Assembly: GCA_965277405.1 (NCBI GenBank)
Contig: OZ255726.1
Coordinates: forward strand, 887,128-951,127
Reading direction: 5' to 3'
DNA from: Gammaproteobacteria bacterium
GTDB lineage: Bacteria > Pseudomonadota > Gammaproteobacteria > G965277405
DNA: 64,000 nucleotides
Each line of letters starts with the position of its first letter. The first letter of the stretch is position 1. Position numbers and translations under genes: made by a program. Positions 14,365-53,026 of the stretch are shown here, in pieces. The notes below the pieces were generated by a model that ran no database searches, had not been told where the DNA came from, and worked only from the letters and a program-made list of their open reading frames with translations.

Positions 14365-14647
14365 TGAAGCTCTGATTAATTCCATGATGGGCGAGACGGA
14401 GAAAAAACGCTGATGATAACTAGACGCAGCACTTGATAATACTGGTGGTATTATCAAGTGCTGCAACGACGTTAGCGCAGCGTTTTTTCCCGTCCTTCTG
14501 TTGAATATACAACGGTTTGATGGTAGCGGTACTTGCTGTGTTGCATCCCTTGGCGTATATGCTATGGCATGCGCCTGCGGAATGCGCCTTGCAATCATCA
14601 GCAATTGCCATCAAACTCGCCCCATCAGCGACTTAATCAGAGCTTCC
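14365..14647 (+). mobile_element. MITE copy 1 (283 bp) with a perfect 4-bp TSD TTAG
   Basis: About 30-bp TIRs (TGAAGCTCTGATTAATTCCATGATGGGCGAG ... CTCGCCCCATCAGCGACTTAATCAGAGCTTCC). TTAG occurs at 14361-14364 and 14648-14651. It is about 90-95% identical to copies 2-6. Confidence 0.85.
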
Positions 14648-20121: not shown

Positions 20122-20391
20122 ATGGCACTTTCGTTTGAAGAAAAACGCGAAATTGTTGAACAATACGGTAAAACCGCAACAGATACTGGCTCGTCCAAAG
20201 TGCAAATAGCTTTGCTAACTGCAGACATTAATAAACTGCAGGACCATTTTAAAAGACAAGGCAAAGATCACCATTCTCGTCGTGGACTGATTCGCAAAGT
20301 AAATCAAAGACGAAAACTACTGCAATACCTGAAAAACTCAAGCATCCAAGCGTATGGCGAAATTATCCGCGCACTTGGACTACGCCGCTAG
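20122..20391 (+). CDS. rpsO: 30S ribosomal protein S15
   Basis: An 89-aa protein matching S15, preceded by an AGGAGA SD. Confidence 0.92.
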
Positions 20392-20401
20392 GACATACAA
20401 C

Positions 20402-22501
20402 ATGACTCAAAATTCAATTAATTTTAATACCCAAACTGTCTCTTTTGCATTTGGTGACCAAACAATTTCTCTTGAAACCGGCAGAATTGCACGTCAAGCA
20501 AGCGGGGCCGTGCTGGCAACAATGGGTGGAACTGCAATATTGGCAACAACAGTTGTTTCCAAACGCGAAAGCCGTTTTGACTTTTTCCCGTTGACGGTGA
20601 ATTATCAAGAAAAAATCTATTCTGCTGGAAAAATTCCAGGTGGTTTTTTCAAACGCGAAGGACGTCCAAGCGAAAAAGAAACGTTGACATCACGGTTGAT
20701 TGACCGCCCAATTCGTCCATTGTTTCCAAGCGGATACATGCAAGAAGTGCAAGTCGTTTGTACAGTGATGTCTGCGGACAAAAACACCAATCCTGATATA
20801 TTAGCGATGATTGCCGCCTCTGCGAGTTTGTGTATTTCAGGCGCTCCTTTTCAAGGCCCGATCGGCGCTGCGCGGGTCGGTGTTGGTGGTGATGGTTCGT
20901 ATATTCTGAACCCATCATATGATGACATGGGTAAGTCATCGTTGGATATGGTCGTGGCAGGCAGCCAAGATGCAATTTTAATGGTCGAATCTGAAGCCAG
21001 CGAACTTGGCGAAGAACATATGCTTGAGGCAGTGATGTTTGCCCATGAACAAATGCAAACTGCAATAGCCGCAATACAGGAATTGGTTGTCAAAGTTGGT
21101 AACCCCTCAAGTAAATGGGAAGCGCCAGCAACAGACGCAGCATTGGTTGATGGCGTAACTGCCAAGTTTGCAGAAAAAATTGCAGCTGCATATACCACCA
21201 GCGACAAACAGCAACGTAGCGAGCAACTCGATACAATTCGCCAACAAATTCATAGCGAATTTGACACAGAAGACAGCAGCAACGCTGGTGAAATTGACTT
21301 GATTATAAAGTCAATTGAAAAGTCATCAGTGCGCCAGCGTTTGATTCGAGGCGAGCCACGGATTGACGGACGAGATTTAAAAACAGTTCGACCGATTGCC
21401 ATTGAAATTGGTGTGCTACCGAATACACACGGCAGCGCATTGTTTACCCGTGGTGAAACACAGGCAATTGTTGTCAGTACGCTCGGTCCTGTAAAAAGCG
21501 CACAAATTATTGATGCGCTTGAAGGTGAATACCGTGATGGATTTATGTTGCATTATAATTTTCCGCCATTTTGCGTTGGTGAAACAGGAATGATGGTTGG
21601 ACCCAAGCGCCGTGAGATTGGTCATGGACGGTTAGCAAGAAGAGGTATTGCTGCGGTGTTGCCACCACAAGAGCAATTTCCATATACGATTCGTGTGGTT
21701 TCTGAAATTACTGAATCGAATGGTTCAAGTTCTATGGCAAGTATTTGCGGCACCAGTCTTTCATTAATGGATGCTGGTGTGCCAATTAAAGCCGCAGTTG
21801 CTGGGGTGGCGATGGGATTAGTAAAAGAGGCTGAAGGACATGCAATTATTACCGACATCCTCGGTGATGAAGATCACTTAGGCGATATGGACTTTAAAGT
21901 TGCCGGAACTGAAAAAGGTGTGACTGCGCTGCAAATGGATATTAAAATTAGCGGAATTACTCGAGAAATTATGGAAGAAGCGTTGACACAGGCGCGTGAA
22001 GGACGCTTACATATTCTTGGTGAAATGAACAAAGTCATTACCAAATCACGGGATCAGCTTGCTGCGTCTGCGCCAACATTGCTGACATTAAAAATCAAGC
22101 AAGATAAAATTCGTGATGTTATTGGTAAAGGTGGTGCAGTAATCAGACAAATGATAGAAGATAGCGGTGCGACAATTGATATAGCTGATGACGGTATGGT
22201 GCAAGTGTATGGAGAAGGTCGTGATTCAGCAGAAGCTGCGATTCAAATGGTCAAAGACATAGTTGCAGAAGCTGAAGTAGGGCAACAAATTACAGGTACA
22301 GTCCGCTCGATTGTTGATTTTGGCGCATTCGTTAACATTCTGCCAAACACTGATGGCTTGCTGCATATTTCTGAAGTATCAAAACGACGTATCCAAAATG
22401 TCAATGAATTCTTAAAAGAAGGACAGAAAATTGAGGTAATTGTCAAAGAAGTTGACCCGCGCGGGCGTATTAAGCTCAGTTTAGTGAATATTTTTGACTA
22501 A
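20402..22501 (+). CDS. pnp: Polyribonucleotide nucleotidyltransferase (PNPase)
   Basis: It has two RNase PH domains plus KH and S1 domains and is about 700 aa. The ATG at 20402 follows the rpsO stop. The TAA stop lies inside the CTAA flank of MITE copy 2. Confidence 0.92.
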
Positions 22502-22787
22502 GGAACCTCTGATTAATTCCATGATGGGCGAGACGGAGAAAAAACGCTGATGAAACTTAAGCGCAGTGCGCAGATAATACTGGTGGTATTATCAAGTGCT
22601 GCAACGACGTTAGCGCAGCGTTTTTTTTCCGTCCTTCTATTGAATATATGATGGTTTGCCTACAAGCGGTACTTGCTGTGTTGCATCCCTTGGCGTATAT
22701 GCTACGGCATGCGCCTACGGAATGCGCCTTGCAATCATCAGCAATTGCAGGCAAACTCGCTCCATCAGCAAGTTAATCAGAGGTTCC
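22502..22787 (+). mobile_element. MITE copy 2 (286 bp), inserted exactly at the pnp stop codon
   Basis: It has both TIRs. The flanks are CTAA (22498-22501, containing the pnp TAA) and CGAA, a 1-mismatch TSD. Confidence 0.85.
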
Positions 22788-23161: not shown

Positions 23162-23207
23162 GGAAACTCTGATTAAGTCGCTCCATGATGGGAAAATCAG
23201 AGTTTGC
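23162..23207. repeat. 46-bp mini-hairpin derived from the MITE termini (GGAAACTCTGATT...AATCAGAGTTTGC)
   Basis: A 13-bp inverted repeat matches the MITE TIR core and brackets a 20-nt TIR-derived loop. It lies between fis-like and gor, immediately upstream of the gor ATG. Confidence 0.6.
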
Positions 23208-36169: not shown

Positions 36170-36885
36170 GCGTTACGAACAAGTGCTTTTAGGCTGTTGA
36201 TGTCGTCTTGGCTAAGCTCAAAAAACTGCTTTGGTTTGACGCTTGGCAACAACATGATTGTACCAAAACGGACGCGAATAAGCCTACTTACTTGGGCGTC
36301 GACTGCCTGCCATAGCCGCCGTACTTGGCGATGCCCTCCGCTTTGTAACACGACATGGAACCAGTGATTCATATTTTCACCTTTGCCTACAGCAATATCG
36401 GTAAACCTGGCGACGCCGTCTTCCAGTTCAATGCCAGTACGCAGTGCTGCTAGCATTGTGTCAGTAATATTTCCGTAAACCCGTACCGCATATTCCCGGT
36501 CAATCTTGTTGGCACGTTTGGTAAGCTGATGGAGTAACATCCCGTCGTTGGTGCAGAGCAATAGTCCTGAAGTATTGACATCCAGTCTGCCGATATATTG
36601 CCAGTGACCATCGTTTATATTAGGCAGGCTACTAAAAATAGACGGCGTATCAGTTCGGCTGCAAAACTCACCAACAGGTTTGTGGTATGCAATAACCCTG
36701 GTGTTAAATCCAGCAGATTTGAGCGCCCCCTTATTGACGATAATCGTATCGTGATGGGTGACAGGTTGACCAATAATTGCTTGTTTCCCATTCACAAAAA
36801 CTAAGCCATTACGGATAAGTTCTTCTGCTTGACGCAGCGAATACTGGCTATTTTTTGCAATGAGTTTATGAATGCGGGTTGCCAT
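36166..36885 (-). CDS. rluB: rRNA pseudouridine synthase with an S4 domain (RsuA/RluB family; RluB is favoured by the scpAB synteny)
   Basis: An S4 domain is followed by the RLDVNTSGLLLCTNDG catalytic motif. It lies immediately downstream of scpB. Confidence 0.7.
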   Translation of the reverse strand: MATRIHKLIAKNSQYSLRQAEELIRNGLVFVNGKQAIIGQPVTHHDTIIVNKGALKSAGFNTRVIAYHKPVGEFCSRTDTPSIFSSLPNINDGHWQYIGRLDVNTSGLLLCTNDGMLLHQLTKRANKIDREYAVRVYGNITDTMLAALRTGIELEDGVARFTDIAVGKGENMNHWFHVVLQSGGHRQVRRLWQAVDAQVSRLIRVRFGTIMLLPSVKPKQFFELSQDDINSLKALVRNA

Positions 36886-37436
36886 TATTGTTGTGGTGTT
36901 TGTTCATACAGCAGTTCGCGTTGTGGCGGCTTAAGTGGCGGTAGATCGTTGACGGACTGCAAGCCAAAATGATCGAGAAATTCTTTAGTTGTGGCTAATA
37001 AGCTAGGCTTGCCTGGTACATCGCGTTGACCGATAACCCGAATCCAGTTATGTTCAAACAGCGTTCTGATAATTGACGAACTTGCCTGAACTCCACGAAT
37101 ATATTCAATTTCACTGCGGGTAATAGGCTGTTTATATGCAATGAGTGCGAGTGTTTCAAGCAATGCTGGTGAATACTTGCTCGGTTTTTCTTGCCACAAT
37201 GTGTGAATCAGTGGTGCAAATTGCTGTTTAATTTGTAATCGCCATCCAGTTGCAACTTCGACAAGATCAAGCGACTGCTGCGCCGTATATGTTTGCTGTA
37301 TGTGTTGCAGCGCAGCAATAATGTCTTCTGCAGTGATACTGGTTGGTAGACAATGTTGAATTGTTGCTATATCCAACGGCTTATCTGCTGCGAACAGCAA
37401 TGCGCTGATCATGTGTGGTAATGCGAGCTTTGCCAT
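36885..37436 (-). CDS. scpB: Segregation and condensation protein B
   Basis: A 183-aa protein with ScpB winged-helix motifs (KQPITRSEIEYIRGV). Confidence 0.85.
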   Translation of the reverse strand: MAKLALPHMISALLFAADKPLDIATIQHCLPTSITAEDIIAALQHIQQTYTAQQSLDLVEVATGWRLQIKQQFAPLIHTLWQEKPSKYSPALLETLALIAYKQPITRSEIEYIRGVQASSSIIRTLFEHNWIRVIGQRDVPGKPSLLATTKEFLDHFGLQSVNDLPPLKPPQRELLYEQTPQQ

Positions 37437-37438
37437 AT

Positions 37439-38224
37439 TTATTGGGTGCGGATGTGCAGTTCATCATATAATTGCGGCTGTATCGCCACAATCGTATTAT
37501 CACGGAGCATTTCGAGTATTGCGACAAAACTTACCACAACACCTGCTAGCCCTTCTTGATGCTCAAAGCATTGTGAGAACGAACAAAATTCCTGTGTAAT
37601 CGCCAGCAATGATTTAATATAACTAATCCTGGTGGTAACTGATAGGACTTGTTGATCAATGACAAATGTCTTACTAAATTGTGCGCGTCTGCTAATAGCT
37701 GCCAGCGCTGCGGTTAATTGCTCGAGTGTCACTGTAGCAATCGCCTTTGGTATTTCTGTATTTATATGAACATTCGCTGGCATGACGTCGCGGTGGTATT
37801 GTGGTATTTCTGCAATTAATGTGGCTGCTTCTTTTATTTGTGAATACGTTTGCAGTCGTTGTAACAACGCTGCGCGCGGGTCTTGTTCCTCGTCATCATC
37901 AAATATTGTTGTTGGCAATAGATAGCGTGATTTTAATTCGGTTAACCACGCAGCCATTGCTAAATAATCAGCAGCTAGCTCTAAATCGAATGCATTCATT
38001 TTGTCAATATACGCAATATATTGATCCGTTATCAATGCCACATTAATGGTGACAATATCGATGTTTTGTTTTTTTGTGAGGTATAGCAGTAAATCAAGAG
38101 GTCCTTCAAATTGTTCTAACAACACCCGCAGTGCATCAGGTGGTATATACAGATCTTTGGGAAATGTATGGATATAGTCATCACCTATTTTAGCAACTGC
38201 TGGCTGAGTCAAAATAGCTTCCAT
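37439..38224 (-). CDS. scpA: Segregation and condensation protein A
   Basis: The motif FEGPLDLLLYLTKKQNIDIVTINVALITDQY is ScpA-like. The protein is 261 aa and lies upstream of scpB. Confidence 0.85.
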   Translation of the reverse strand: MEAILTQPAVAKIGDDYIHTFPKDLYIPPDALRVLLEQFEGPLDLLLYLTKKQNIDIVTINVALITDQYIAYIDKMNAFDLELAADYLAMAAWLTELKSRYLLPTTIFDDDEEQDPRAALLQRLQTYSQIKEAATLIAEIPQYHRDVMPANVHINTEIPKAIATVTLEQLTAALAAISRRAQFSKTFVIDQQVLSVTTRISYIKSLLAITQEFCSFSQCFEHQEGLAGVVVSFVAILEMLRDNTIVAIQPQLYDELHIRTQ

Positions 38225-42346: not shown

Positions 42347-43239
42347 TACGCAGTTGGTGTAGTTGATAGCAAAGACCAGTGTATTGGCACGGACACCTCA
42401 ATTGTTGCTGCTTTGCCGATCGGTTTAAAGCCGATGGTCTCTGCGTGTAAATGTAACCTACTGGCTGGAGTATTGCTGTATACAGAATCACCAATGACAG
42501 GATGTTGTGCGCTGGCACAATGACTGCGAATTTGATGGTTGCGACCTGTTATTGGGAATGCATGCAGCACACTGACAATCCCAAGCTCTGGGTCATGAAC
42601 AGTCTTTTGCTTGGTAAAGCGTGTAAGTGATTGCTTCCCCATGGGTTGAGATATACTCAAAGTTTGTCCAGATATAAATTGCTTGGTTAAGGGAATATCG
42701 ATTTCTCGCAAGTCATCAGGCCAGTCTCCGGCAACGACACAATTATATTGCTTGTAGACAGCGCGATGCTTAAGCTGCTGTTGCAATGCCAATAGTGCCG
42801 CACGGTTTTTTGAGATAAGCAGGCAACCTGAGGTGTCTTTATCGATTCTATGCACAAGTTCGTATTCGTTGTTCCATACTGTCCGCACCAGATTTATCAA
42901 GCCAAATTGATGACCAGAGCCACCATGCACAGGAATTCCAGCAGGCTTATTGACAACAATACACGCTTCATCTTCATACACAATTGCATCAATAACCCAA
43001 CTGCTGCGCTCAAAACTTGGTTGCATTGGGATATGCTGTTCAAGCCACGGAGGTAGGCGAATAATGTCTCCTGTAGCAACGCGTTGCATCGGTTTACAGC
43101 GCGACTTATTGCAACGCACTTGACCAGATCTGATTAGTTTGTAGATATTTGAGCGAGCCAGCGACCGCACTTTGCCTAATAAAAAATTATCCAGCCGTTG
43201 ACCATGATGCTGCGTATCAACAATCATGGTGTTACTCAT
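42346..43239 (-). CDS. rluC: 23S rRNA pseudouridine synthase RluC (RluA family with S4 domain)
   Basis: An S4 N-domain is followed by HRIDKDTSGCLLISK and a C-terminal GDSVY motif. The protein is 297 aa. Confidence 0.8.
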   Translation of the reverse strand: MSNTMIVDTQHHGQRLDNFLLGKVRSLARSNIYKLIRSGQVRCNKSRCKPMQRVATGDIIRLPPWLEQHIPMQPSFERSSWVIDAIVYEDEACIVVNKPAGIPVHGGSGHQFGLINLVRTVWNNEYELVHRIDKDTSGCLLISKNRAALLALQQQLKHRAVYKQYNCVVAGDWPDDLREIDIPLTKQFISGQTLSISQPMGKQSLTRFTKQKTVHDPELGIVSVLHAFPITGRNHQIRSHCASAQHPVIGDSVYSNTPASRLHLHAETIGFKPIGKAATIEVSVPIHWSLLSTTPTA

Positions 43240-44308
43240 CAGCTAGTCCGGCCATGAGTCGCGCTTGATGTTCTTGTTGCAAAGCAGTGATGGTTTCGTC
43301 TAAATCACCTTCGACAATAGTATCGAGTTTATACAGCGTTAAACCAATACGATGGTCTGTCATCCGTCCTTGGGGAAAGTTATAAGTACGGATTCGTTGC
43401 GACCGGTCACCACTACCGATTAAATTTCTACGTGTTTCTGCTTGTTGCTGATGCGCTTGCTGACGCTGCTGATCTTCGAGTCTTGCCCCAAGCAATGATA
43501 GCGCACGCGCTTTGTTTTTATGCTGTGAGCGCTCATCTTGACATTCAACGACAACGCCTGTTGGAACATGGGTGATGCGTATCGCAGAATCAGTGGTATT
43601 AACATGTTGCCCGCCAGCACCAGAAGAGCGAAAGGTATCAATGCGCAAGTCACTTTTGTCAATTTGTATTGCTAACTCTTCTGGTTCGACTAGTACAGCC
43701 ACTGTGCACGCCGATGTATGAATACGCCCTTGCGACTCAGTCGCTGGCACCCGTTGGACACGGTGTGCGCCTGATTCAAATTTCAAATGCCGATAAACAT
43801 CTTTTCCTTCAACCCGGGTGATAATTTCACGATAGCCTCCTTGTTCACTTTCGCTAATCGATACAACTTGCGTCGTCCAACGGTGTTGCTCAGCAAAACG
43901 CAGATACATCCGCTGCAGGTCAGCACAAAAAAGTGCAGCTTCGCTGCCACCAGTCCCTGCGCGGATTTCGACGAATACATTGGCGCCATCATCTTTATCT
44001 TTTGGTAACAATAGTGTTTTGATAGTCATTAATGTGTCGTCAATTCCATGTTGCAGGTCTTGCAGTTCCGTTACCGCAAGATTATGCATTTCTGCATCCG
44101 CTAATAATACAGATGTTGATTGGTGCTGCGCTTCAAAGCCTATATATGTCAACCATGCATTGTGGATTGGCTCTAAGTCGGCAATTTCTTGCATCAACGC
44201 CTTGTATACATCAATATCGTTAGTAATGTCTGGCTGTGCCAGCTGATTCGCAACAATGGTATGACGCTCTTCAAGAGCTTGGAGCCGATTGCGCAGTTGA
44301 TTATTCAT
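43232..44308 (-). CDS. prfA: Peptide chain release factor 1
   Basis: A GGQ motif (SGAGGQHVNTTDSAIRITHVPTG) and PxT-type RF1 features are present. It lies downstream of hemA. Confidence 0.92.
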   Translation of the reverse strand: MNNQLRNRLQALEERHTIVANQLAQPDITNDIDVYKALMQEIADLEPIHNAWLTYIGFEAQHQSTSVLLADAEMHNLAVTELQDLQHGIDDTLMTIKTLLLPKDKDDGANVFVEIRAGTGGSEAALFCADLQRMYLRFAEQHRWTTQVVSISESEQGGYREIITRVEGKDVYRHLKFESGAHRVQRVPATESQGRIHTSACTVAVLVEPEELAIQIDKSDLRIDTFRSSGAGGQHVNTTDSAIRITHVPTGVVVECQDERSQHKNKARALSLLGARLEDQQRQQAHQQQAETRRNLIGSGDRSQRIRTYNFPQGRMTDHRIGLTLYKLDTIVEGDLDETITALQQEHQARLMAGLADE

Positions 44309-45615
44309 GGTGTTGGTGTTTGCTGTTTGCTGTTTACGCTGGTAGCGGGTGGATGGATTGCAAAGAGGGTATGCGCTGCTTGCAAGAGTTGGGTATCGCC
44401 TTTCTTTCCGGCTTCACGCATTGCTACGGTTGGATGGTGGGCAATTTTTTGGATGAGCGCAGACGCCATCCGCTCGATGACGTATTTTGGATCATCTCCT
44501 CTGTTGAGCATAGTATATGCTTTGCGTATTTCTACATCTCGAACTGATTGTATATGTGCGCGAAATGGCCGCAACAATGCGTTATGATTGGTTTGATTGA
44601 TGCGCTGTTGCAGCTCATACATGGCTGTATTGATGATCAAGTGTGCGTGTTGAGCTGCTTGTTTGCGTAACTTACTGTTGCCTTCGATAATGGCTCCTAA
44701 GTCGTCAACACAATATAAAAATACATGGTCTATTGCAGCCACTTCATATTCAATATCACGCGGTACCGCTAAGTCAAAATACAGTTGAGTTGCATATTTT
44801 CGTTGTTTGCCTGCCTGCTCTACTTGCCCTTTTCCTACCAGCGGTAATGTGCTAGATGTTGCGCTGACTATAATATCTGCTTGGTGAAGTAGTTCAGGAA
44901 TTTCATACAGCGGGTAGGTGCTTCCCCCAGTTTTTTGCGCCAACCGCGTGCCACGAACACTACTGCGGTTGCATATCCAAGGAGGTGGACAGCCCAAATC
45001 TGACAGATATTGGGCGACCAAAACGATGGTATCGCCAGCACCAATAAGTAACACGCGTTTATTGTCAAATCTAGAGAATATATTTTTTGCCAATGAAACC
45101 GCTATATGGGCGACCGACATTGGTGATTGGCCAATTGCGGTGTTGTGACGAATGCGTTTAACAATATGGAATACAAACGGGATGACTGTAGCAAAAAAAT
45201 CCCCACAGTAATCAAGCTGCTTGGCGTGGTCGTACGCTGCTTTCATTTGCCCAAATATTTGCGGCTCACCGAGCGCCATCGATTCAAGACCGCAGGCAAC
45301 TATAATTAAGTGCCTAATTGCCTCGTCGCCAGTATAGCAATAATGGTCAGCAATTTTTTCGGCGACAACAAAGCGCAGCCACGTGTCAAGGATGCGTTGC
45401 AAGCAAACCTCAGTTGCCAACGTCTTGGCAACGATATACCACTCTATTCTATTGCAGGTTGATAGCACAAAACACTCATCAACGCCATGCTGTTGTAGTT
45501 CGGCGTATATCAACTCTATCGCAGCGGCATTTGGCAATAATCGCTCGCGCTGAGCAATATCTGTTTTGCGGTGATCTATGCCAACGATAAGGCATTGCAT
45601 ACTGTTGAGTTTCAT
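44305..45615 (-). CDS. hemA: Glutamyl-tRNA reductase HemA
   Basis: The N-terminus MKLNSMQCLIVGIDHRKTDI...LSTCNRIEWY has the catalytic Cys (CNR) and an NADPH domain. The protein is 436 aa. Confidence 0.9.
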   Translation of the reverse strand: MKLNSMQCLIVGIDHRKTDIAQRERLLPNAAAIELIYAELQQHGVDECFVLSTCNRIEWYIVAKTLATEVCLQRILDTWLRFVVAEKIADHYCYTGDEAIRHLIIVACGLESMALGEPQIFGQMKAAYDHAKQLDYCGDFFATVIPFVFHIVKRIRHNTAIGQSPMSVAHIAVSLAKNIFSRFDNKRVLLIGAGDTIVLVAQYLSDLGCPPPWICNRSSVRGTRLAQKTGGSTYPLYEIPELLHQADIIVSATSSTLPLVGKGQVEQAGKQRKYATQLYFDLAVPRDIEYEVAAIDHVFLYCVDDLGAIIEGNSKLRKQAAQHAHLIINTAMYELQQRINQTNHNALLRPFRAHIQSVRDVEIRKAYTMLNRGDDPKYVIERMASALIQKIAHHPTVAMREAGKKGDTQLLQAAHTLFAIHPPATSVNSKQQTPTP

Positions 45616-45626
45616 ACGTATGCTAA

Positions 45627-45910
45627 GGAACCTCTGATTAAGTCCATGATGGGCGAGACGGAGAAAAAACGCTGATGATAACTAGACGCAGTGCGCAGAT
45701 AATACTGGTGGTATTATTAAGTGCTGCAACGACGTTAGCGCAGCGTTTTTTCCCGTCCTTCTGTTGAATATACAACAGTTTGATGGTAGCGGTACTTGCT
45801 GTGTTGCATCCTTTGGCGTATATGCTACGGCATACGCCTGCGGAATGCGCCTTGCAATCATCAGCAATTACCATCAAACTCGCTCCATCAGCGACTTAAT
45901 CAGAGGTCCC
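45627..45910 (+). mobile_element. MITE copy 4 (284 bp) with a perfect TSD CTAA. It is inserted between the plsC stop and the hemA start.
   Basis: CTAA occurs at 45623-45626 and 45911-45914. The right TSD contains the plsC stop (TAG on the minus strand). The hemA ATG is 11 bp from the left end. Confidence 0.88.
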
Positions 45911-46630
45911 CTAATGAATGGAGCTACAAGTAGCTTCGATCCAGGTTCTTAGTTGTTGTGTTGCTAACTTACTATCTGGCATTGGTTGTATATGCGGACC
46001 AAAAATCACGCGGATAGTTCCAGGGTATTTAGTTATTTGATGCGCGGGCCAACGCGACCCAGCATTGTGTGCAAATGGAATAATTGGGCATTTGTTTTCA
46101 TGCGCCAGTTTTGTCGCGGTGCGGGTAAATGGTCCAAGTTCAGGTGCATAACGTCTGGTTCCTTCAGGGAAAATGAGTAAATTATGACCTTGAGATAAGT
46201 GGACACTTCCTTGCGCAATAACTTGGCGAAGTGCCTGTGTCTTATTTTTTCTAATCAGTGTTACTGGTTTGAGCAATGCTAATGCCCAACCAAATATTGG
46301 AATCCAAATCAGCTCATACTTTAATACACTGACCATTGGCATTGCAAATGATTGAATAACCAGTGTTTCCCATGGGCTTTGGTGGTTACCGGCAAACACA
46401 CAGGCACGATGCGCTTGCAATGCGGTGCGGATATGTTCTAAGCCATCGATTTGCATGGAAATATTGCAGCTGAGTTTTAGCCAAAATAACACAAACCGCG
46501 TGAGTACAGCAGGCACTATAAAGCGTTTTTTGAACGGCAGCATCCAACCAAATAGCAGCGATGCCACGCACACTATAGTGACCGCTACCACGTAGCCGAT
46601 ATAAAAAATTATTGAACGGAAAATCAACAT
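45911..46630 (-). CDS. plsC: 1-acyl-sn-glycerol-3-phosphate acyltransferase (PlsC family)
   Basis: The HX4D-type motif (NHQSPWE) and FPEGTR motif are present, along with an N-terminal TM segment. Confidence 0.8.
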   Translation of the reverse strand: MLIFRSIIFYIGYVVAVTIVCVASLLFGWMLPFKKRFIVPAVLTRFVLFWLKLSCNISMQIDGLEHIRTALQAHRACVFAGNHQSPWETLVIQSFAMPMVSVLKYELIWIPIFGWALALLKPVTLIRKNKTQALRQVIAQGSVHLSQGHNLLIFPEGTRRYAPELGPFTRTATKLAHENKCPIIPFAHNAGSRWPAHQITKYPGTIRVIFGPHIQPMPDSKLATQQLRTWIEATCSSIH

Positions 46631-47618: not shown

Positions 47619-48020
47619 TTGCTATACCATCGAGCAGTCTTCAAAATGAACAAACAAGCATTGCGCTTCGCTACGAATGCGTCGGGGGGCTATGTTGCCA
47701 CATTTGCTTAGGCTGTCATCGCTTTGACGCCAATTGTGTTGGATATTTACCAAGATATATTTGCTCGATAGATGTATTTGCTCGATAGCTGCCGCTAAAA
47801 TTCGAAAAACACCTGATATTTGTCCGTTATTCAGTACTCCAATGAGCTAATGCTGGCTGTAAAACTCCTTGCCAAGTTATTTTTTTAACAAAAAAAATAA
47901 TTTTTAGCAAATTTGTGCATTTTTGGTATCATGAACACGCTCAATATTGGTTTGCAACATTGCTGCGTCAAGAACATCAAATGTGGTCAGTTTTTCGAGA
48001 TTTGTTAGGGTATATTTAAA

Positions 48021-50042: not shown

Positions 50043-50064
50043 GATAATTTAGGAGGAATACTAT

Positions 50065-50347
50065 GGAAGCTATGATTAAGTCCATGACGGGCGAGACGGA
50101 GAAAAAACGCTGATGATAACTAGACGCAGTGCGCAGATAATACTGGTGGTATTATCAAGTGCTGCAACGACGTTAGCGCAGCGTTTTTTTCCGTCCTTCT
50201 GTTGAATATATGATGGTTTGCTGCAGCGGTACTTGCTGTGTTGCATCCCTTGGCGTATATGCTACGGCATGCGCCTGCGGAATGCGCCTTGCAATCATCA
50301 GCAATTGCAGGCAAACTCGCTCCATCAGCGACTTAATCAGAGCTTCC
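50065..50347 (+). mobile_element. MITE copy 5 (283 bp) with a perfect TSD CTAT. It is inserted between the SD and start codon of the ATP-grasp gene.
   Basis: CTAT occurs at 50061-50064 and 50348-50351. The AGGAGG SD at 50051-50056 is now separated from the ATG (50350) by the element. Confidence 0.9.
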
Positions 50348-50349
50348 CT

Positions 50350-51615
50350 ATGGGCCTTACATTAGGGTTGGTCTGTCAGCGCAATAACAACGTGCCGTTC
50401 CTATTTGAAGCAGCGGCAGCCAATCGATGTGGTTTAGTACTTATTCACGCACCCGGTGAATCTCCCCCGACGCATATGCCAGCTGTTGTCCACACGTTGG
50501 AGCTCGACGTATTTGCTCATCCACAAGCCGCGCTCTCACAGCTTGAGGCTGAAAAAATCGGACTAGATGGCATATTAACCTGCCGTGAAGAGGCTGTGCC
50601 CTGGACTGCCTTAGCAGCCCAACGCCTCAAACTACCTGGACTCAACCCCGATGCGGCACTCATCACCCGCGATAAAGCACAGATGAGAAAAGCTTTTGCA
50701 GTGGCGGGGTTAAATGTTCCAAGCTATACCTCCCTGTCAGCAGACGCCCCAGTAACACTATCCGCTAGCATGTCATACCCGCTAGTCGTCAAACCCACAG
50801 GTGGCTACGCAAGCCAAGGTGTCATTCGCGTTGATAAAGCGAGTGATCTGAAAAATACAGTAGCTAAAGTGCGAGCAATCAATGCCAATGACCTCGACGC
50901 TTTCGCCACCACTACCAGCGGAATCAATTGGGGCGCTGTTATCGTTGAAGAGTATATCGACGGCCCCGAATATGCAGTAGAGGTGTTTGCAACCGAAGGG
51001 CGGGTACATGTACTCTCCATTGGTTACAAAGGCGAGCCCAAGGGTCCTTACTTTGAGGAGACAGTTTACCTCGCGCCACCACACCTCGCGCCAGCTACAC
51101 ATAAGGCAATTGTGGAGCAAGCAATTGGCGGCATGGAATCTTTAGGCCTTACTGACGGCCCAGGCCACTGCGAGTTAAGACTGCAAAATAGCACGAAACC
51201 CTATCTGCTTGAGATTGGAGCAAGGATCGGCGGGTCTGGGGTAAGCCAATTTATAGTACAGGAAAGTTCAGGAATTGATTATGCTGGCCTACAGTTCCGC
51301 CAGTCCGCCAAGTCCTCCCTTCCCGAACTTCCTGACATAGCGACGCCAATCGCGACTGCAGGAAACTGGATTATCCCACTCGGTGGTCATGGAAAATTGG
51401 TTGATATTGCAGGTCTACAAGTGGTTCATGAGCATCCAGAAACCAAGCGCGTGCTAACCTTCCTCGAACCTGGCACCGCTGTGCAACCCTATCCAATTTT
51501 CAGTGGGTATCCAGGTTTCGTGTTATCACGCCACACCGACTGGCAGTCTGGTATAGACTATCATCGCTGGCTCAGCCAAAAACTCCGTACACATTGGGTG
51601 GAGGTAGAAACTTAA
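50350..51615 (+). CDS. ATP-grasp domain protein (carboxylate-amine / L-amino-acid ligase-like)
   Basis: ATP-grasp motifs (PLVVKPTGGYASQGV...EEYIDGPEYAVE...ELRL...LLEIGARIGG). The start at 50350 is reconstructed from the pre-insertion site. The track ORF start at 50218 lies inside the MITE. Confidence 0.75.
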   Translation: MGLTLGLVCQRNNNVPFLFEAAAANRCGLVLIHAPGESPPTHMPAVVHTLELDVFAHPQAALSQLEAEKIGLDGILTCREEAVPWTALAAQRLKLPGLNPDAALITRDKAQMRKAFAVAGLNVPSYTSLSADAPVTLSASMSYPLVVKPTGGYASQGVIRVDKASDLKNTVAKVRAINANDLDAFATTTSGINWGAVIVEEYIDGPEYAVEVFATEGRVHVLSIGYKGEPKGPYFEETVYLAPPHLAPATHKAIVEQAIGGMESLGLTDGPGHCELRLQNSTKPYLLEIGARIGGSGVSQFIVQESSGIDYAGLQFRQSAKSSLPELPDIATPIATAGNWIIPLGGHGKLVDIAGLQVVHEHPETKRVLTFLEPGTAVQPYPIFSGYPGFVLSRHTDWQSGIDYHRWLSQKLRTHWVEVET

Positions 51616-52882: not shown

Positions 52883-53026
52883 GGAACCTCTGATTAAGTC
52901 CATAATGGGCGAAACGGAGCAAAAACGACGTGAGCACAGCGTTTTTCCTGTTCCTCTGTTGCATATACTGTTCAATATACAACGGTTTGGAGCAATTGCT
53001 GCATCAGCGCCTTAATTAGGACTTCC
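52883..53026 (+). mobile_element. Internally deleted MITE derivative (144 bp) retaining both termini
   Basis: The left end is GGAACCTCTGATTAAGTCCATAATGGGCGAAACGGAGCAAAAACG and the right end is ...GCGCCTTAATTAGGACTTCC. The flanks are CTAG / TTAA. Confidence 0.7.

Follow-up and report, generated by a model that had tools for sequence, protein, structure and literature searches.

RNase III cleaves the terminal duplex formed by Correia elements, the MITEs of Neisseria, and outward-directed promoters are present in some of their subtypes (PMC10969869). In Porphyromonas gingivalis, the BrickBuilt/MITEPgRS elements have been found by experiment to possess promoter activity in both directions (PMC4596501). 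The ERIC/IRU repeats of enterobacteria are palindromic intergenic sequences that are transcribed within operons and affect mRNA stability in a context-dependent manner (PMC10969869).

We compared these systems with a MITE that separates a plsC-like gene from hemA in a 64-kb window, the whole stretch of DNA analyzed here. Like Correia elements, it is small and non-coding, has terminal inverted repeats and a target duplication, and occurs in many copies at gene borders. It is also predicted to be co-transcribed with its neighbors, its RNA folding into a long terminal duplex. Correia elements, however, measure ~100-200 bp, duplicate TA, are not related to IS5 and belong to another lineage, whereas our element is 284 bp long, is flanked by a 4-bp YTAR-type duplication and contains two large internal hairpins. 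Membership in the Correia (CREE) group was rejected, because the duplication is 4 bp and not TA and the termini are not Correia-type 26-bp repeats. The analogy is thus functional only, and as such Correia elements may offer the best guide to the fate of a transcript running from plsC through the MITE into hemA. BrickBuilt is likewise an IS5-family-type MITE that is strictly intergenic and lies near gene starts, but it has terminal repeats of the GAGACC... class, a minisatellite and a host from another phylum, and no comparable conserved three-way fold has been reported for it. ERIC/IRU resembles our element as a palindromic intergenic repeat transcribed in operons (predicted here), and differs in its length of 127 bp, in having no known IS5 partner, and in its termini and duplication.

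The insertion between the plsC-like gene and hemA

As read from the sequence, the element is bounded by 18-nt inverted repeats matching at 17 of 18 positions, with a perfect CTAA on either side (Table 1). Removing the element together with one CTAA in silico yields ...TCC ATT CAT TAG CATACGT ATG AAA CTC AAC, exactly the junction that an earlier, sequence-only reading had restored. Its placement of the insertion on the plsC-like stop codon and beside the hemA start also stands, as the TAG is contained in the right CTAA and the hemA ORF begins 11 nt from the element. The assignment as a MITE is borne out by the terminal repeats, the target duplication, the many copies and the sharing of ends with an IS5-family partner. 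The insertion is genuine but unremarkable for a transposon, and it is characteristic of a repeat family that is widespread and strongly folded.

Table 1. Features of the plsC-like/hemA region in window coordinates
Feature	Position	Strand	Remarks
MITE copy	45627..45910	+	284 bp; A-end adjoins hemA, B-end adjoins plsC-like gene
Target-site duplication, left CTAA	45623..45626	.	Coding strand TTAG; between element and hemA
Target-site duplication, right CTAA	45911..45914	.	45911-45913 is the plsC-like TAG stop (45913-45911 as read)
Terminal inverted repeat, A-end (left)	45627..45644	+	GGAACCTCTGATTAAGTC; pattern match, 0 mismatches; outward (hemA-ward) reading has GAGGU
Terminal inverted repeat, B-end (right, reverse complement)	45893..45910	-	GGGACCTCTGATTAAGTC; 0 mismatches to GGRACC...
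Internal hairpin I, ~100 nt	45657..45757	.	GACGGAG-A6-CGCTG ... CAGCG-T6-CCCGTC; RNA folds
U6 of hairpin I on hemA-ward RNA	45669-45664		"Terminator-like" feature
Small hairpin II	45761..45778	.	CTGTTG-AATATA-CAACAG at three-way junction; RNA folds
Internal hairpin III, ~110 nt	45779..45890	.	RNA folds
Weak in-element promoter-like site	45675..45702	-	TTATCT-16-TATCAT; faces hemA; chance level; below 9/12 threshold
Weak promoter-like site	45646-45620	hemA-ward	TGGACT-15-TAGCAT; would start transcript at about the Met1 ATG
Best sigma-70-like site in region	47943..47971	-	TTGACG-17-AATATT; divergent spacer upstream of yaaA; consensus 9/12
plsC-like lysophospholipid acyltransferase	45911..46630	-	239 aa, full length; PF01553 Acyltransferase, 68 bits
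hemA (glutamyl-tRNA reductase)	44305..45615	-	ORF Met1 at 45615; TIGR01035, 332 bits (cutoff 209.55)
prfA	43232..44308	-	TIGR00019, 491 bits; 4-nt overlap with hemA stop

Both strands of the element are predicted to fold very stably (-131 and -135 kcal/mol, with z-scores of -12.3 and -11.3). Its internal ORFs (61-79 aa) have no Pfam match, and no reading frame is open throughout the MITE copies compared; a coding role of the internal 79-aa ORF was rejected on these grounds. A spurious 78-aa gene inside the element is a product of annotation pipelines.

The upstream gene is called plsC-like because its scores fall under the plsC equivalog cutoffs (67.5 bits against TIGR00530, cutoff 103); its homologs, 235-259 aa in length, cover 97-100% of the protein. 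In an alignment of HemA N termini, 12 of 12 homologs begin at the column of Met-6, and the true start of hemA is probably this ATG (45600-45598). The gap between the two genes before the insertion would then have been 22 nt rather than 7, and the element would now end 26 nt rather than 11 nt from the start codon. The shorter distances given by the sequence-only reading thus hold for the first ATG of the ORF but probably not for the gene. The tight linkage that it proposed is supported with either start, and so small a gap could not have accommodated a promoter or terminator between the genes. Downstream, hemA and prfA are the first two genes of a tightly packed 10-gene string (hemA-prfA-rluC-galU-purH-...) that reaches ~35588; the element occupies the spacer at its head, and all ORFs beyond it are intact.

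The insertion is also present, with three substitutions, in a second assembly, that of a sister strain (98.3% identity over 18.6 kb). No empty site was found in a search of 5.8 billion proteins, in which the nearest HemA and acyltransferase homologs are ~40% identical. The two genes are not adjacent in three genomes at this level of identity, where the acyltransferase lies near moaC/moaD and fabA/B and hemA near lolB-ispE-prs. Exact scans with the MITE core returned nothing from the species-genome collection or the JGI metagenomes. At this locus the insertion is of little consequence: it leaves the upstream protein unaltered and the downstream genes whole, and it is fixed in both strains.

Copies, an IS5-family partner and a wider family

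The window holds seven full and three partial copies of the MITE, and the terminal-repeat pattern matches 16 times against 0.04 expected. The copy at 45627 is 90-95% identical to those at 14365, 22502, 25602 and 50065. Perfect duplications also flank copies 14365 (TTAG) and 50065 (CTAT), and three of four positions match at 22502 and 61604; CTAA, TTAG and CTAT were classed as YTAR-type, as for IS5. Another insertion in the window lies between eamA and an ATP-grasp gene.

A partner IS of 1229 bp is present in the sister strain (locus L001, 1510-2738), with the termini GGAAGCTCTGATTAAG; no other full-length copy was found among the fetched loci. Three ORF fragments of this IS match NF033581 ("IS5 family transposase") at 92, 82 and 85 bits, carry DUF772 and DDE_Tnp_1 domains and are ~59% identical to ISXfu1-like transposases. 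The MITE and its partner resemble IS5 in their YTAR-type 4-bp duplications and in termini starting with GGAAG/GGAAC. They depart from a simple IS5 relationship in that only the outer 16-19 nt are common to the partner and the MITE, whose interior is unrelated, and in that the transposase is split into three ORFs, so present-day mobility is putative.

Elements of ~275 bp delimited by the same terminal repeats number at least 90 in genomes of beta- and gammaproteobacteria. A perfect 4-bp duplication flanks 29 of the 88 scorable elements in other genomes (TTAG 10, CTAA 9, TTAA 5, CTAG 3 and TTTA 2, the last not of the YTAR type). Using RNAalifold and pair counting, we found that the family shares a conserved three-way-junction fold with strong covariation, 93.4% of cells being paired compared with 82% in shuffles and 37-41% with slid partners, and double changes occurring in 59 of 96 pairs. 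The family counterparts of hairpin I (helices 2-4) and hairpin III (helices 6-8) covary, and hairpin II corresponds in position to an invariant CCC-loop-GGG hairpin.

Nine of 91 members from other genomes lie between two long ORFs, the upstream one ending in the 4-bp flank and the downstream one starting within 30 nt. Of 108 ORF ends that point inward, 27 coincide exactly with the element boundary. Long-ORF starts are located ≤9 nt from 12.9% of element ends compared with 4.3% of unoccupied non-genic YTAR sites (OR 3.3, p=1e-5), and stricter criteria give 7.6% versus 1.5% (OR 5.4, p=2e-5). The arrangement of a stop codon in the duplication and a start codon a few nt past the opposite end recurs in the family and is not peculiar to the hemA copy.

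Neither the window nor 12 loci with family members gave an Rfam match at gathering score; the plsC-like/hemA locus returned only noise (E ~5). The terminal-repeat-pair pattern was absent from viral contigs, and a BLAST search of plasmids with a family member returned no match. No paper was found that contains the terminal-repeat sequence, nor, by keyword, one on such a MITE in betaproteobacterial hosts. A widespread ~275-bp MITE family with IS5-type ends and a covarying fold is apparently undescribed.

Transcription and translation across the element

We consider it somewhat probable that a MITE mobilized by an IS5-group transposase hit the plsC-like stop and that the hemA string is still read through from upstream. 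The 284-bp non-autonomous element would have entered the coding-strand TTAG, which consists of the third base of the terminal His codon and the TAG stop and lay 7 nt upstream of the first ATG in the hemA ORF, or 22 nt upstream of Met-6, the probable start. The 4-bp duplication typical of IS5-type insertion would have rebuilt the stop codon, leaving the acyltransferase unchanged. Transcription of the hemA string would then come mainly by read-through from one or more upstream promoters. The best candidate precedes yaaA, where a site with a PWM score of 10.6 (99.96th percentile) is a candidate promoter for a transcript covering yaaA, plsC, hemA and genes beyond. The element RNA is predicted to close on itself as a three-way junction, so that access to the hemA start region would be unchanged; near Met-6 the mean unpaired probability is 0.43 whether or not the element is present. 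Some transcripts may be lost to termination or to processing at the long terminal duplex, and possible stop/start translational coupling would be lost through the insertion.

Translation of hemA would proceed without a Shine-Dalgarno (SD) sequence, as for most genes of the genome. Pairing with the anti-SD at or below -6 kcal/mol is predicted at only eight of 46 gene starts in the window, two of which owe it to the GAGG of a MITE terminal repeat, and the same scan found no SD for prfA, rluC or galU. Since most genes in the window lack one, hemA is not special in this respect. The statement that hemA has no recognizable SD needs qualification, as the terminal repeat read outward (...CAGAGGUUCC) does place GAGGU 14-15 nt before the Met-1 ATG. 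Two useful corrections emerge at this locus: hemA probably starts at Met-6, and starts without an SD are the norm in this genome.

The element could instead block transcription from plsC, with an outward promoter inside it, or a hybrid one at its hemA side, driving hemA-prfA and the remaining genes of the string. A U6 run preceded by a hairpin does face hemA; the sequence-only reading had spoken of internal terminator-like hairpins, and the CAGCG-U6 at this position, a motif found on both strands, could act as a partial intrinsic terminator. The terminator scan did not call it, however. The ~100-nt hairpin is imperfect with ~76 nt between the arms, the A6:U6 pairing runs through the U-run, and the T-run is absent from many family members and thus not conserved. 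The two weak hemA-ward sites in Table 1 would provide a promoter, for which the outward promoters of Correia and BrickBuilt are a precedent, and the GAGG of the terminal repeat would stay unpaired in a transcript that begins within the element. These sites nevertheless score at the 99.2-99.5th percentile, and neither reaches 9/12. Neither consensus nor PWM scans found a hemA-ward promoter above chance within the element, the best PWM score being ~6.7-6.8 (99.5th percentile), with ~2 such chance matches expected per 360 nt; consensus scans are weak tools here, as their consensus may not be that of the host. The hemA-proximal 75 nt (45627-45701) differ from those of copy 25602 at two bases only, one of them base 5 of the terminal repeat, and bear no sign of local adaptation. 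Copies between co-directional genes occur in both orientations without bias (4 versus 3 in the window, 9 versus 8 in other genomes). Together, we regard an element-driven hemA string as somewhat unlikely, and the earlier conclusion that hemA-prfA must depend on signals borne by the element is not supported: SD-less starts are usual, no in-element promoter exceeds chance, the terminator is uncalled and copies stand in either orientation. Read-through would be at least as likely as element-borne signals, given the SD-less genes, the chance-level promoter scores and the two orientations; we infer it solely from the lack of better signals.

A different role for the insertion would be that of a portable ribosome-binding site: the outward GAGG of the terminal repeat, located 4 nt from the element end, would replace lost coupling or a lost SD for the next gene, including hemA. 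GAGG is kept in nearly all of the 91 fetched family members, and the enrichment of long-ORF starts within 9 nt of element ends puts it 5-13 nt before the start codon. At hemA the spacing is 15 nt from Met-1 and 30 nt from Met-6, beyond the usual window, and in read-through RNA the opposite terminal repeat is predicted to pair completely with this GAGG (unpaired probability 0.00). The genome mostly manages without SD sequences, and a target preference for AT-rich stop/start junctions could explain the enrichment equally well; we consider this role very improbable. That the element is a repeated structured RNA gene or a cis-regulatory RNA rather than a transposon remnant appears extremely improbable. 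Its very stable fold and the family covariation would fit such a function, but the terminal repeats, the 4-bp YTAR duplications and the IS5 partner with the same ends speak for a transposon, and Rfam gave no match. Both strands fold equally well (-218 versus -220), G-U and A-C mismatches are balanced save at two fixed positions, and orientation relative to genes is unbiased; a strand-specific RNA role was rejected on these three grounds.

Beyond the read-through that we favor for hemA, the family offers a tractable system for how bacteria tolerate large structured insertions within operons, and bears on the question whether transposon ends can provide translation signals. It is conceivable, though in our view unlikely, that the family is pre-adapted to operon junctions, a rebuilt YTAR stop, a terminal GAGG at SD distance and a self-contained fold making insertion near-neutral. 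The fold and the terminal GAGG would then be selected features of a mobile operon spacer and not by-products. On this reading, the YTAR target would often be a TAA or TAG stop codon, the fold would prevent sequence that loads Rho or blocks ribosomes from being exposed in the inserted 275-285 nt, and the compensatory changes across beta- and gammaproteobacteria would maintain it. The plsC-like/hemA and eamA/ATP-grasp insertions would be two instances in the window.

Insertion between the plsC-like gene and hemA

Across the junction the forward strand reads ...tttCAT acgtatg CTAA, then the MITE from GGAACCTCTGATTAAGTC to GACTTAATCAGAGGTCCC, then CTAA tgaatgg..., and the 18-nt termini of the element are identical at 17/18 positions. 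Read on the minus (coding) strand, the right-hand CTAA becomes TTAG, which ends in the TAG stop codon of the plsC-like gene; the annotated hemA ATG lies 11 nt past the opposite MITE end. Removing the element and one CTAA in silico yields TCC ATT CAT TAG CATACGT ATG AAA CTC AAC. A sequence-only reading had described this arrangement, with the CTAA duplication, the stop TAG, 7 nt, the hemA ATG and its 11-nt distance from the element, and we confirm the observation as correct and precise. The splitting of the operon is likewise real, but such a configuration is typical for this MITE family. Any translational coupling between the plsC stop and the hemA start was certainly lost through the insertion.

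Positions of features in the window (empty cells, no value reported)
Feature	Position	Description
plsC-like gene	45911..46630 (-)	PF01553 acyltransferase
hemA ORF	44305..45615 (-)	as annotated
pnp	20354..22501	TAA stop in flank 22498-22501
MITE copy	14365	full
MITE copy	22502-22787	full; CTAA and CGAA (3/4) flanks
MITE copy	25602	full
MITE copy	45627-45910	full; 284 bp; CTAA on either flank
MITE copy	50065-50347	full; duplication CTAT, window 50043-50352
MITE copy	54998	full
MITE copy	61604	full
Terminal-repeat end	9189	solo
Terminal-repeat end	23162-23203	solo; ~40 nt
Terminal-repeat end	52883	solo
Best promoter-like site of region	47971-47943	TTGACG-17-AATATT; PWM 10.6, 99.96th percentile

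The hemA product scores 332 bits against TIGR01035 (cutoff 209.55) and has all three GlutR Pfam domains. prfA follows directly with a 4-nt overlap, and then come a rluC-like gene, galU, purH, a Sel1-repeat gene, scpA, scpB, a second pseudouridine synthase gene and rsmD, all from hemA onward encoded on the minus strand, where neighbors overlap or lie at most 32 nt apart. The acyltransferase scores below the plsC equivalog cutoffs and is therefore called plsC-like; it is full length compared with its homologues, and TAG is thus the native stop rather than the mark of a truncation.

The source organism is an orphan: the closest homologues of its HemA and acyltransferase among 5.8 billion collected proteins are 39-42% identical. 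In the relatives inspected, the acyltransferase gene neighbors moaC/moaD and fabA/fabB, and hemA has its usual divergent lolB-ispE-prs neighborhood, which makes plsC next to hemA a lineage-specific arrangement. An unoccupied junction was found neither among the homologue genomes inspected nor in a second strain, and it is duplication logic by itself that points to the pre-insertion state. The second strain, reached via its HemA protein, is a nearly identical one (L001, ENA ERZ26859071 contig_5), with 98.3% identity to the window across 18.6 kb and differences mostly in one 1.5-kb tract. It carries the same insertion with 3 substitutions in its 284 bp, which is therefore real and no assembly artefact, and older than the split of the two strains. 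The divergent tract (window 36500-38000; scpA/scpB/pseudouridine synthase) holds 187/296 mismatches, the remainder of the 18.6 kb being nearly identical, and looks like a recombination import.

Expression of hemA next to the element

The sequence-only reading had further proposed that hemA-prfA expression must depend on element-borne signals, hemA having no recognizable SD. We paired the 22 nt upstream of 46 window gene starts with the anti-SD, and only 8/46 reach -6 kcal/mol or better; prfA, rluC, galU and most other window genes have no SD by this measure, so that an SD-less hemA would be normal here. Many window genes overlap or abut their upstream neighbor. Two of the eight starts use the GAGG of the MITE terminal repeat, namely that of the fis-like ORF behind copy 22502 and that of hemA itself, to which the absence of any recognizable SD thus does not strictly apply. 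The repeat reads outward ...CAGAGGTTCC, and a start 1-9 nt past it has GAGG 5-13 nt upstream. For hemA, however, the spacing is 15 or 30 nt, and we give an SD function low weight at this locus because the GAGG is fully paired in the modeled read-through RNA. Start-proximal GAGG in the family may be a used SD or a by-product of an element preference for stop/start junctions. The hemA start itself is probably Met6 (ATG 45600-45598), the column at which 12/12 aligned homologues begin, the ORF then being annotated 5 codons too long (window 45598-45615). This ATG would have lain 22 nt from the plsC stop before the insertion and is now 26 nt from the element. Its mean unpaired probability in the model RNA is 0.43 with and without the element, whereas that around Met1 falls from 0.42 to 0.24 when the element is present.

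A promoter within the element that drives hemA-prfA is the main rival to transcription reading through from upstream, and we consider it a live one, though less probable. In a consensus scan, the element showed neither a promoter on its hemA-ward strand nor a terminator; over 15 kb, the counts show no excess over shuffles. The PWM scores reached in the element (5.9-6.8, 99.2-99.5th percentile) are such that about two would be expected by chance in this stretch, and the best promoter-like site of the region is found elsewhere, in the divergent spacer of 400 bp in front of yaaA, as one would expect of an operon promoter. The terminator-like hairpin that had been proposed does contain a real CAGCG-U6; this closes a 76-nt imperfect hairpin in which the U-run pairs with an upstream A-run, and related elements have T4-5 in its place or no run at all. 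Orientation between co-directional genes is balanced, with 4 window copies one way vs 3 the other and 9 vs 8 family members in other genomes. Taken over SD, start codon, promoter and terminator scans and orientation, nothing computed supports an obligatory dependence on the element. We rank read-through transcription first and consider the explanation as a whole rather probable. Rho should load less readily on the 295 untranslated nt of such a transcript because of the closed fold (-131 kcal/mol, z = -12.3), and the 18-30-bp terminal duplex would be the kind of substrate that RNase III cleaves in Correia-containing transcripts (PMC10969869).

An IS5-type MITE family and its fold

The terminal-repeat pattern matches 16 times in the window vs 0.04 expected. 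The 4-bp duplications are perfect at three copies (TTAG, CTAA, CTAT) and 3/4 at two. None of the internal ORFs matches Pfam, and the copies share no open frame; an automatically called ORF of 78-79 aa (window 45638-45877 (-), L001 9742-9978), likewise without a Pfam hit or a kept frame, is likely spurious. The second strain carries a 1229-bp element with termini GGAAGCTCTGATTAAG and three ORF fragments with DUF772 and DDE_Tnp_1. Against NCBIfam NF033581 (IS5 family transposase) these fragments score 92, 82 and 85 bits, and their identity to ISXfu1-like transposases is ~59%. The 1229-bp element shares with the MITE the outer 16-19 nt only. The insertion at hemA is thus an IS5-mobilized MITE and as such nothing out of the ordinary.

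Divergence between the two strains begins exactly at a terminal repeat (window 52883-52901 vs L001 1-2740). On the window side a solo MITE-like end is followed by a 605-aa amine-oxidase-like ORF; on the L001 side, hda and a gene for RNase R, both absent from the window, come after the 1229-bp IS5-family element with its broken transposase, which suggests that a rearrangement had its breakpoint at IS/MITE ends. Upstream of the IS5-family element, the L001 spacer holds a tandem repeat, GCACCCATGTAA x5 (1140-1195). Another solo end, at 23162, lies directly before a glutathione-reductase-like gene (start about 23204).

With each species represented by one genome, a search for the two terminal repeats at a distance of 238-268 nt matched at least 90 stretches. 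Hosts among the matches listed are beta- and gammaproteobacterial, including Gallionella, Nitrotoga, Halothiobacillus, Burkholderiales, Nitrosomonadales, Methylophilaceae, Steroidobacteraceae and Natronospira, with a few acidobacterial, deltaproteobacterial and clostridial MAGs. Among the same matches, 73/91 elements form one similarity cluster (269-294 bp, mostly 270-276 bp; L008:1015-1287, L044:1294-1566 and L017:2507-2776 are examples of ~275 bp), and 29/88 scorable elements have a perfect 4-bp duplication, YTAR-type save two TTTA. Several genomes hold at least 9-12 copies each in the fetched loci alone. Window copies align end to end with family members and share their architecture, a three-way-junction fold. 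Its terminal stem measures about 30 bp, and there are three hairpins, of which I is long and has conserved motifs in its internal loops (GATGAT..C.AG.CGC / GCAACGA), II is small and III is again long.

Covariation of this fold is strong. In an RNAalifold consensus of 96 pairs from 69 distinct sequences, 93.4% of cells are paired, vs 82.0% when columns are shuffled and 37-41% when partners are slid by 1-3 columns; 59/96 pairs have changes on both sides, and the covariation score is 0.306 vs 0.118, a value reached by 0/500 shuffles the former. The two strands fold alike (-218 vs -220 kcal/mol), and G-U and A-C mismatches are balanced save at two fixed U·G positions, which points to DNA-level or palindrome maintenance as the cause, template-switch repair included, rather than to a strand-specific RNA. 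No Rfam model matches the family and no paper containing the terminal repeat sequence was found; it is apparently an undescribed, widespread and strongly covarying MITE family. Together with its habit of occupying stop/start junctions, it is the most interesting by-product of this analysis.

Occupancy of stop/start junctions

In the loci from species genomes carrying family members (L006-L095), 108 long ORFs run toward an element and end no more than 200 nt from it; 27 of them stop exactly at its boundary, with the stop codon in the 4-bp flank. Outward long ORFs start at most 9 nt from 22/170 element ends vs 113/2620 unoccupied non-genic YTAR sites of the same loci (OR 3.3, p = 1e-5). When restricted to ATG starts, ORFs of at least 200 aa and de-duplicated flanks, the comparison gives 12/158 vs 37/2464 (OR 5.4, p = 2e-5). 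Both features are combined, as at the hemA junction, in 9/91 elements among the matches listed. With crude ORF calls and non-independent copies, these statistics are a lead, no proof.

In the window, copy 50065, an insertion common to both strains, splits a canonical SD from its start codon. In-silico removal restores AGGAGGAATACTATGGGC, with AGGAGG 7 nt before ATG 50350 of an ATP-grasp gene, whose N-terminus is placed there by homology (NF002563 aligns from residue 90 to profile position 47). The gene's own reading frame continues without a stop for 132 nt into the copy, and the orphaned SD now precedes a 16-codon ORF in the element, the ATG of which is formed by CTAT+G. At copy 22502, the pnp stop lies in the CTAA flank like that of the plsC-like gene, and the downstream fis-like gene probably has its real start 70-100 nt past the copy.
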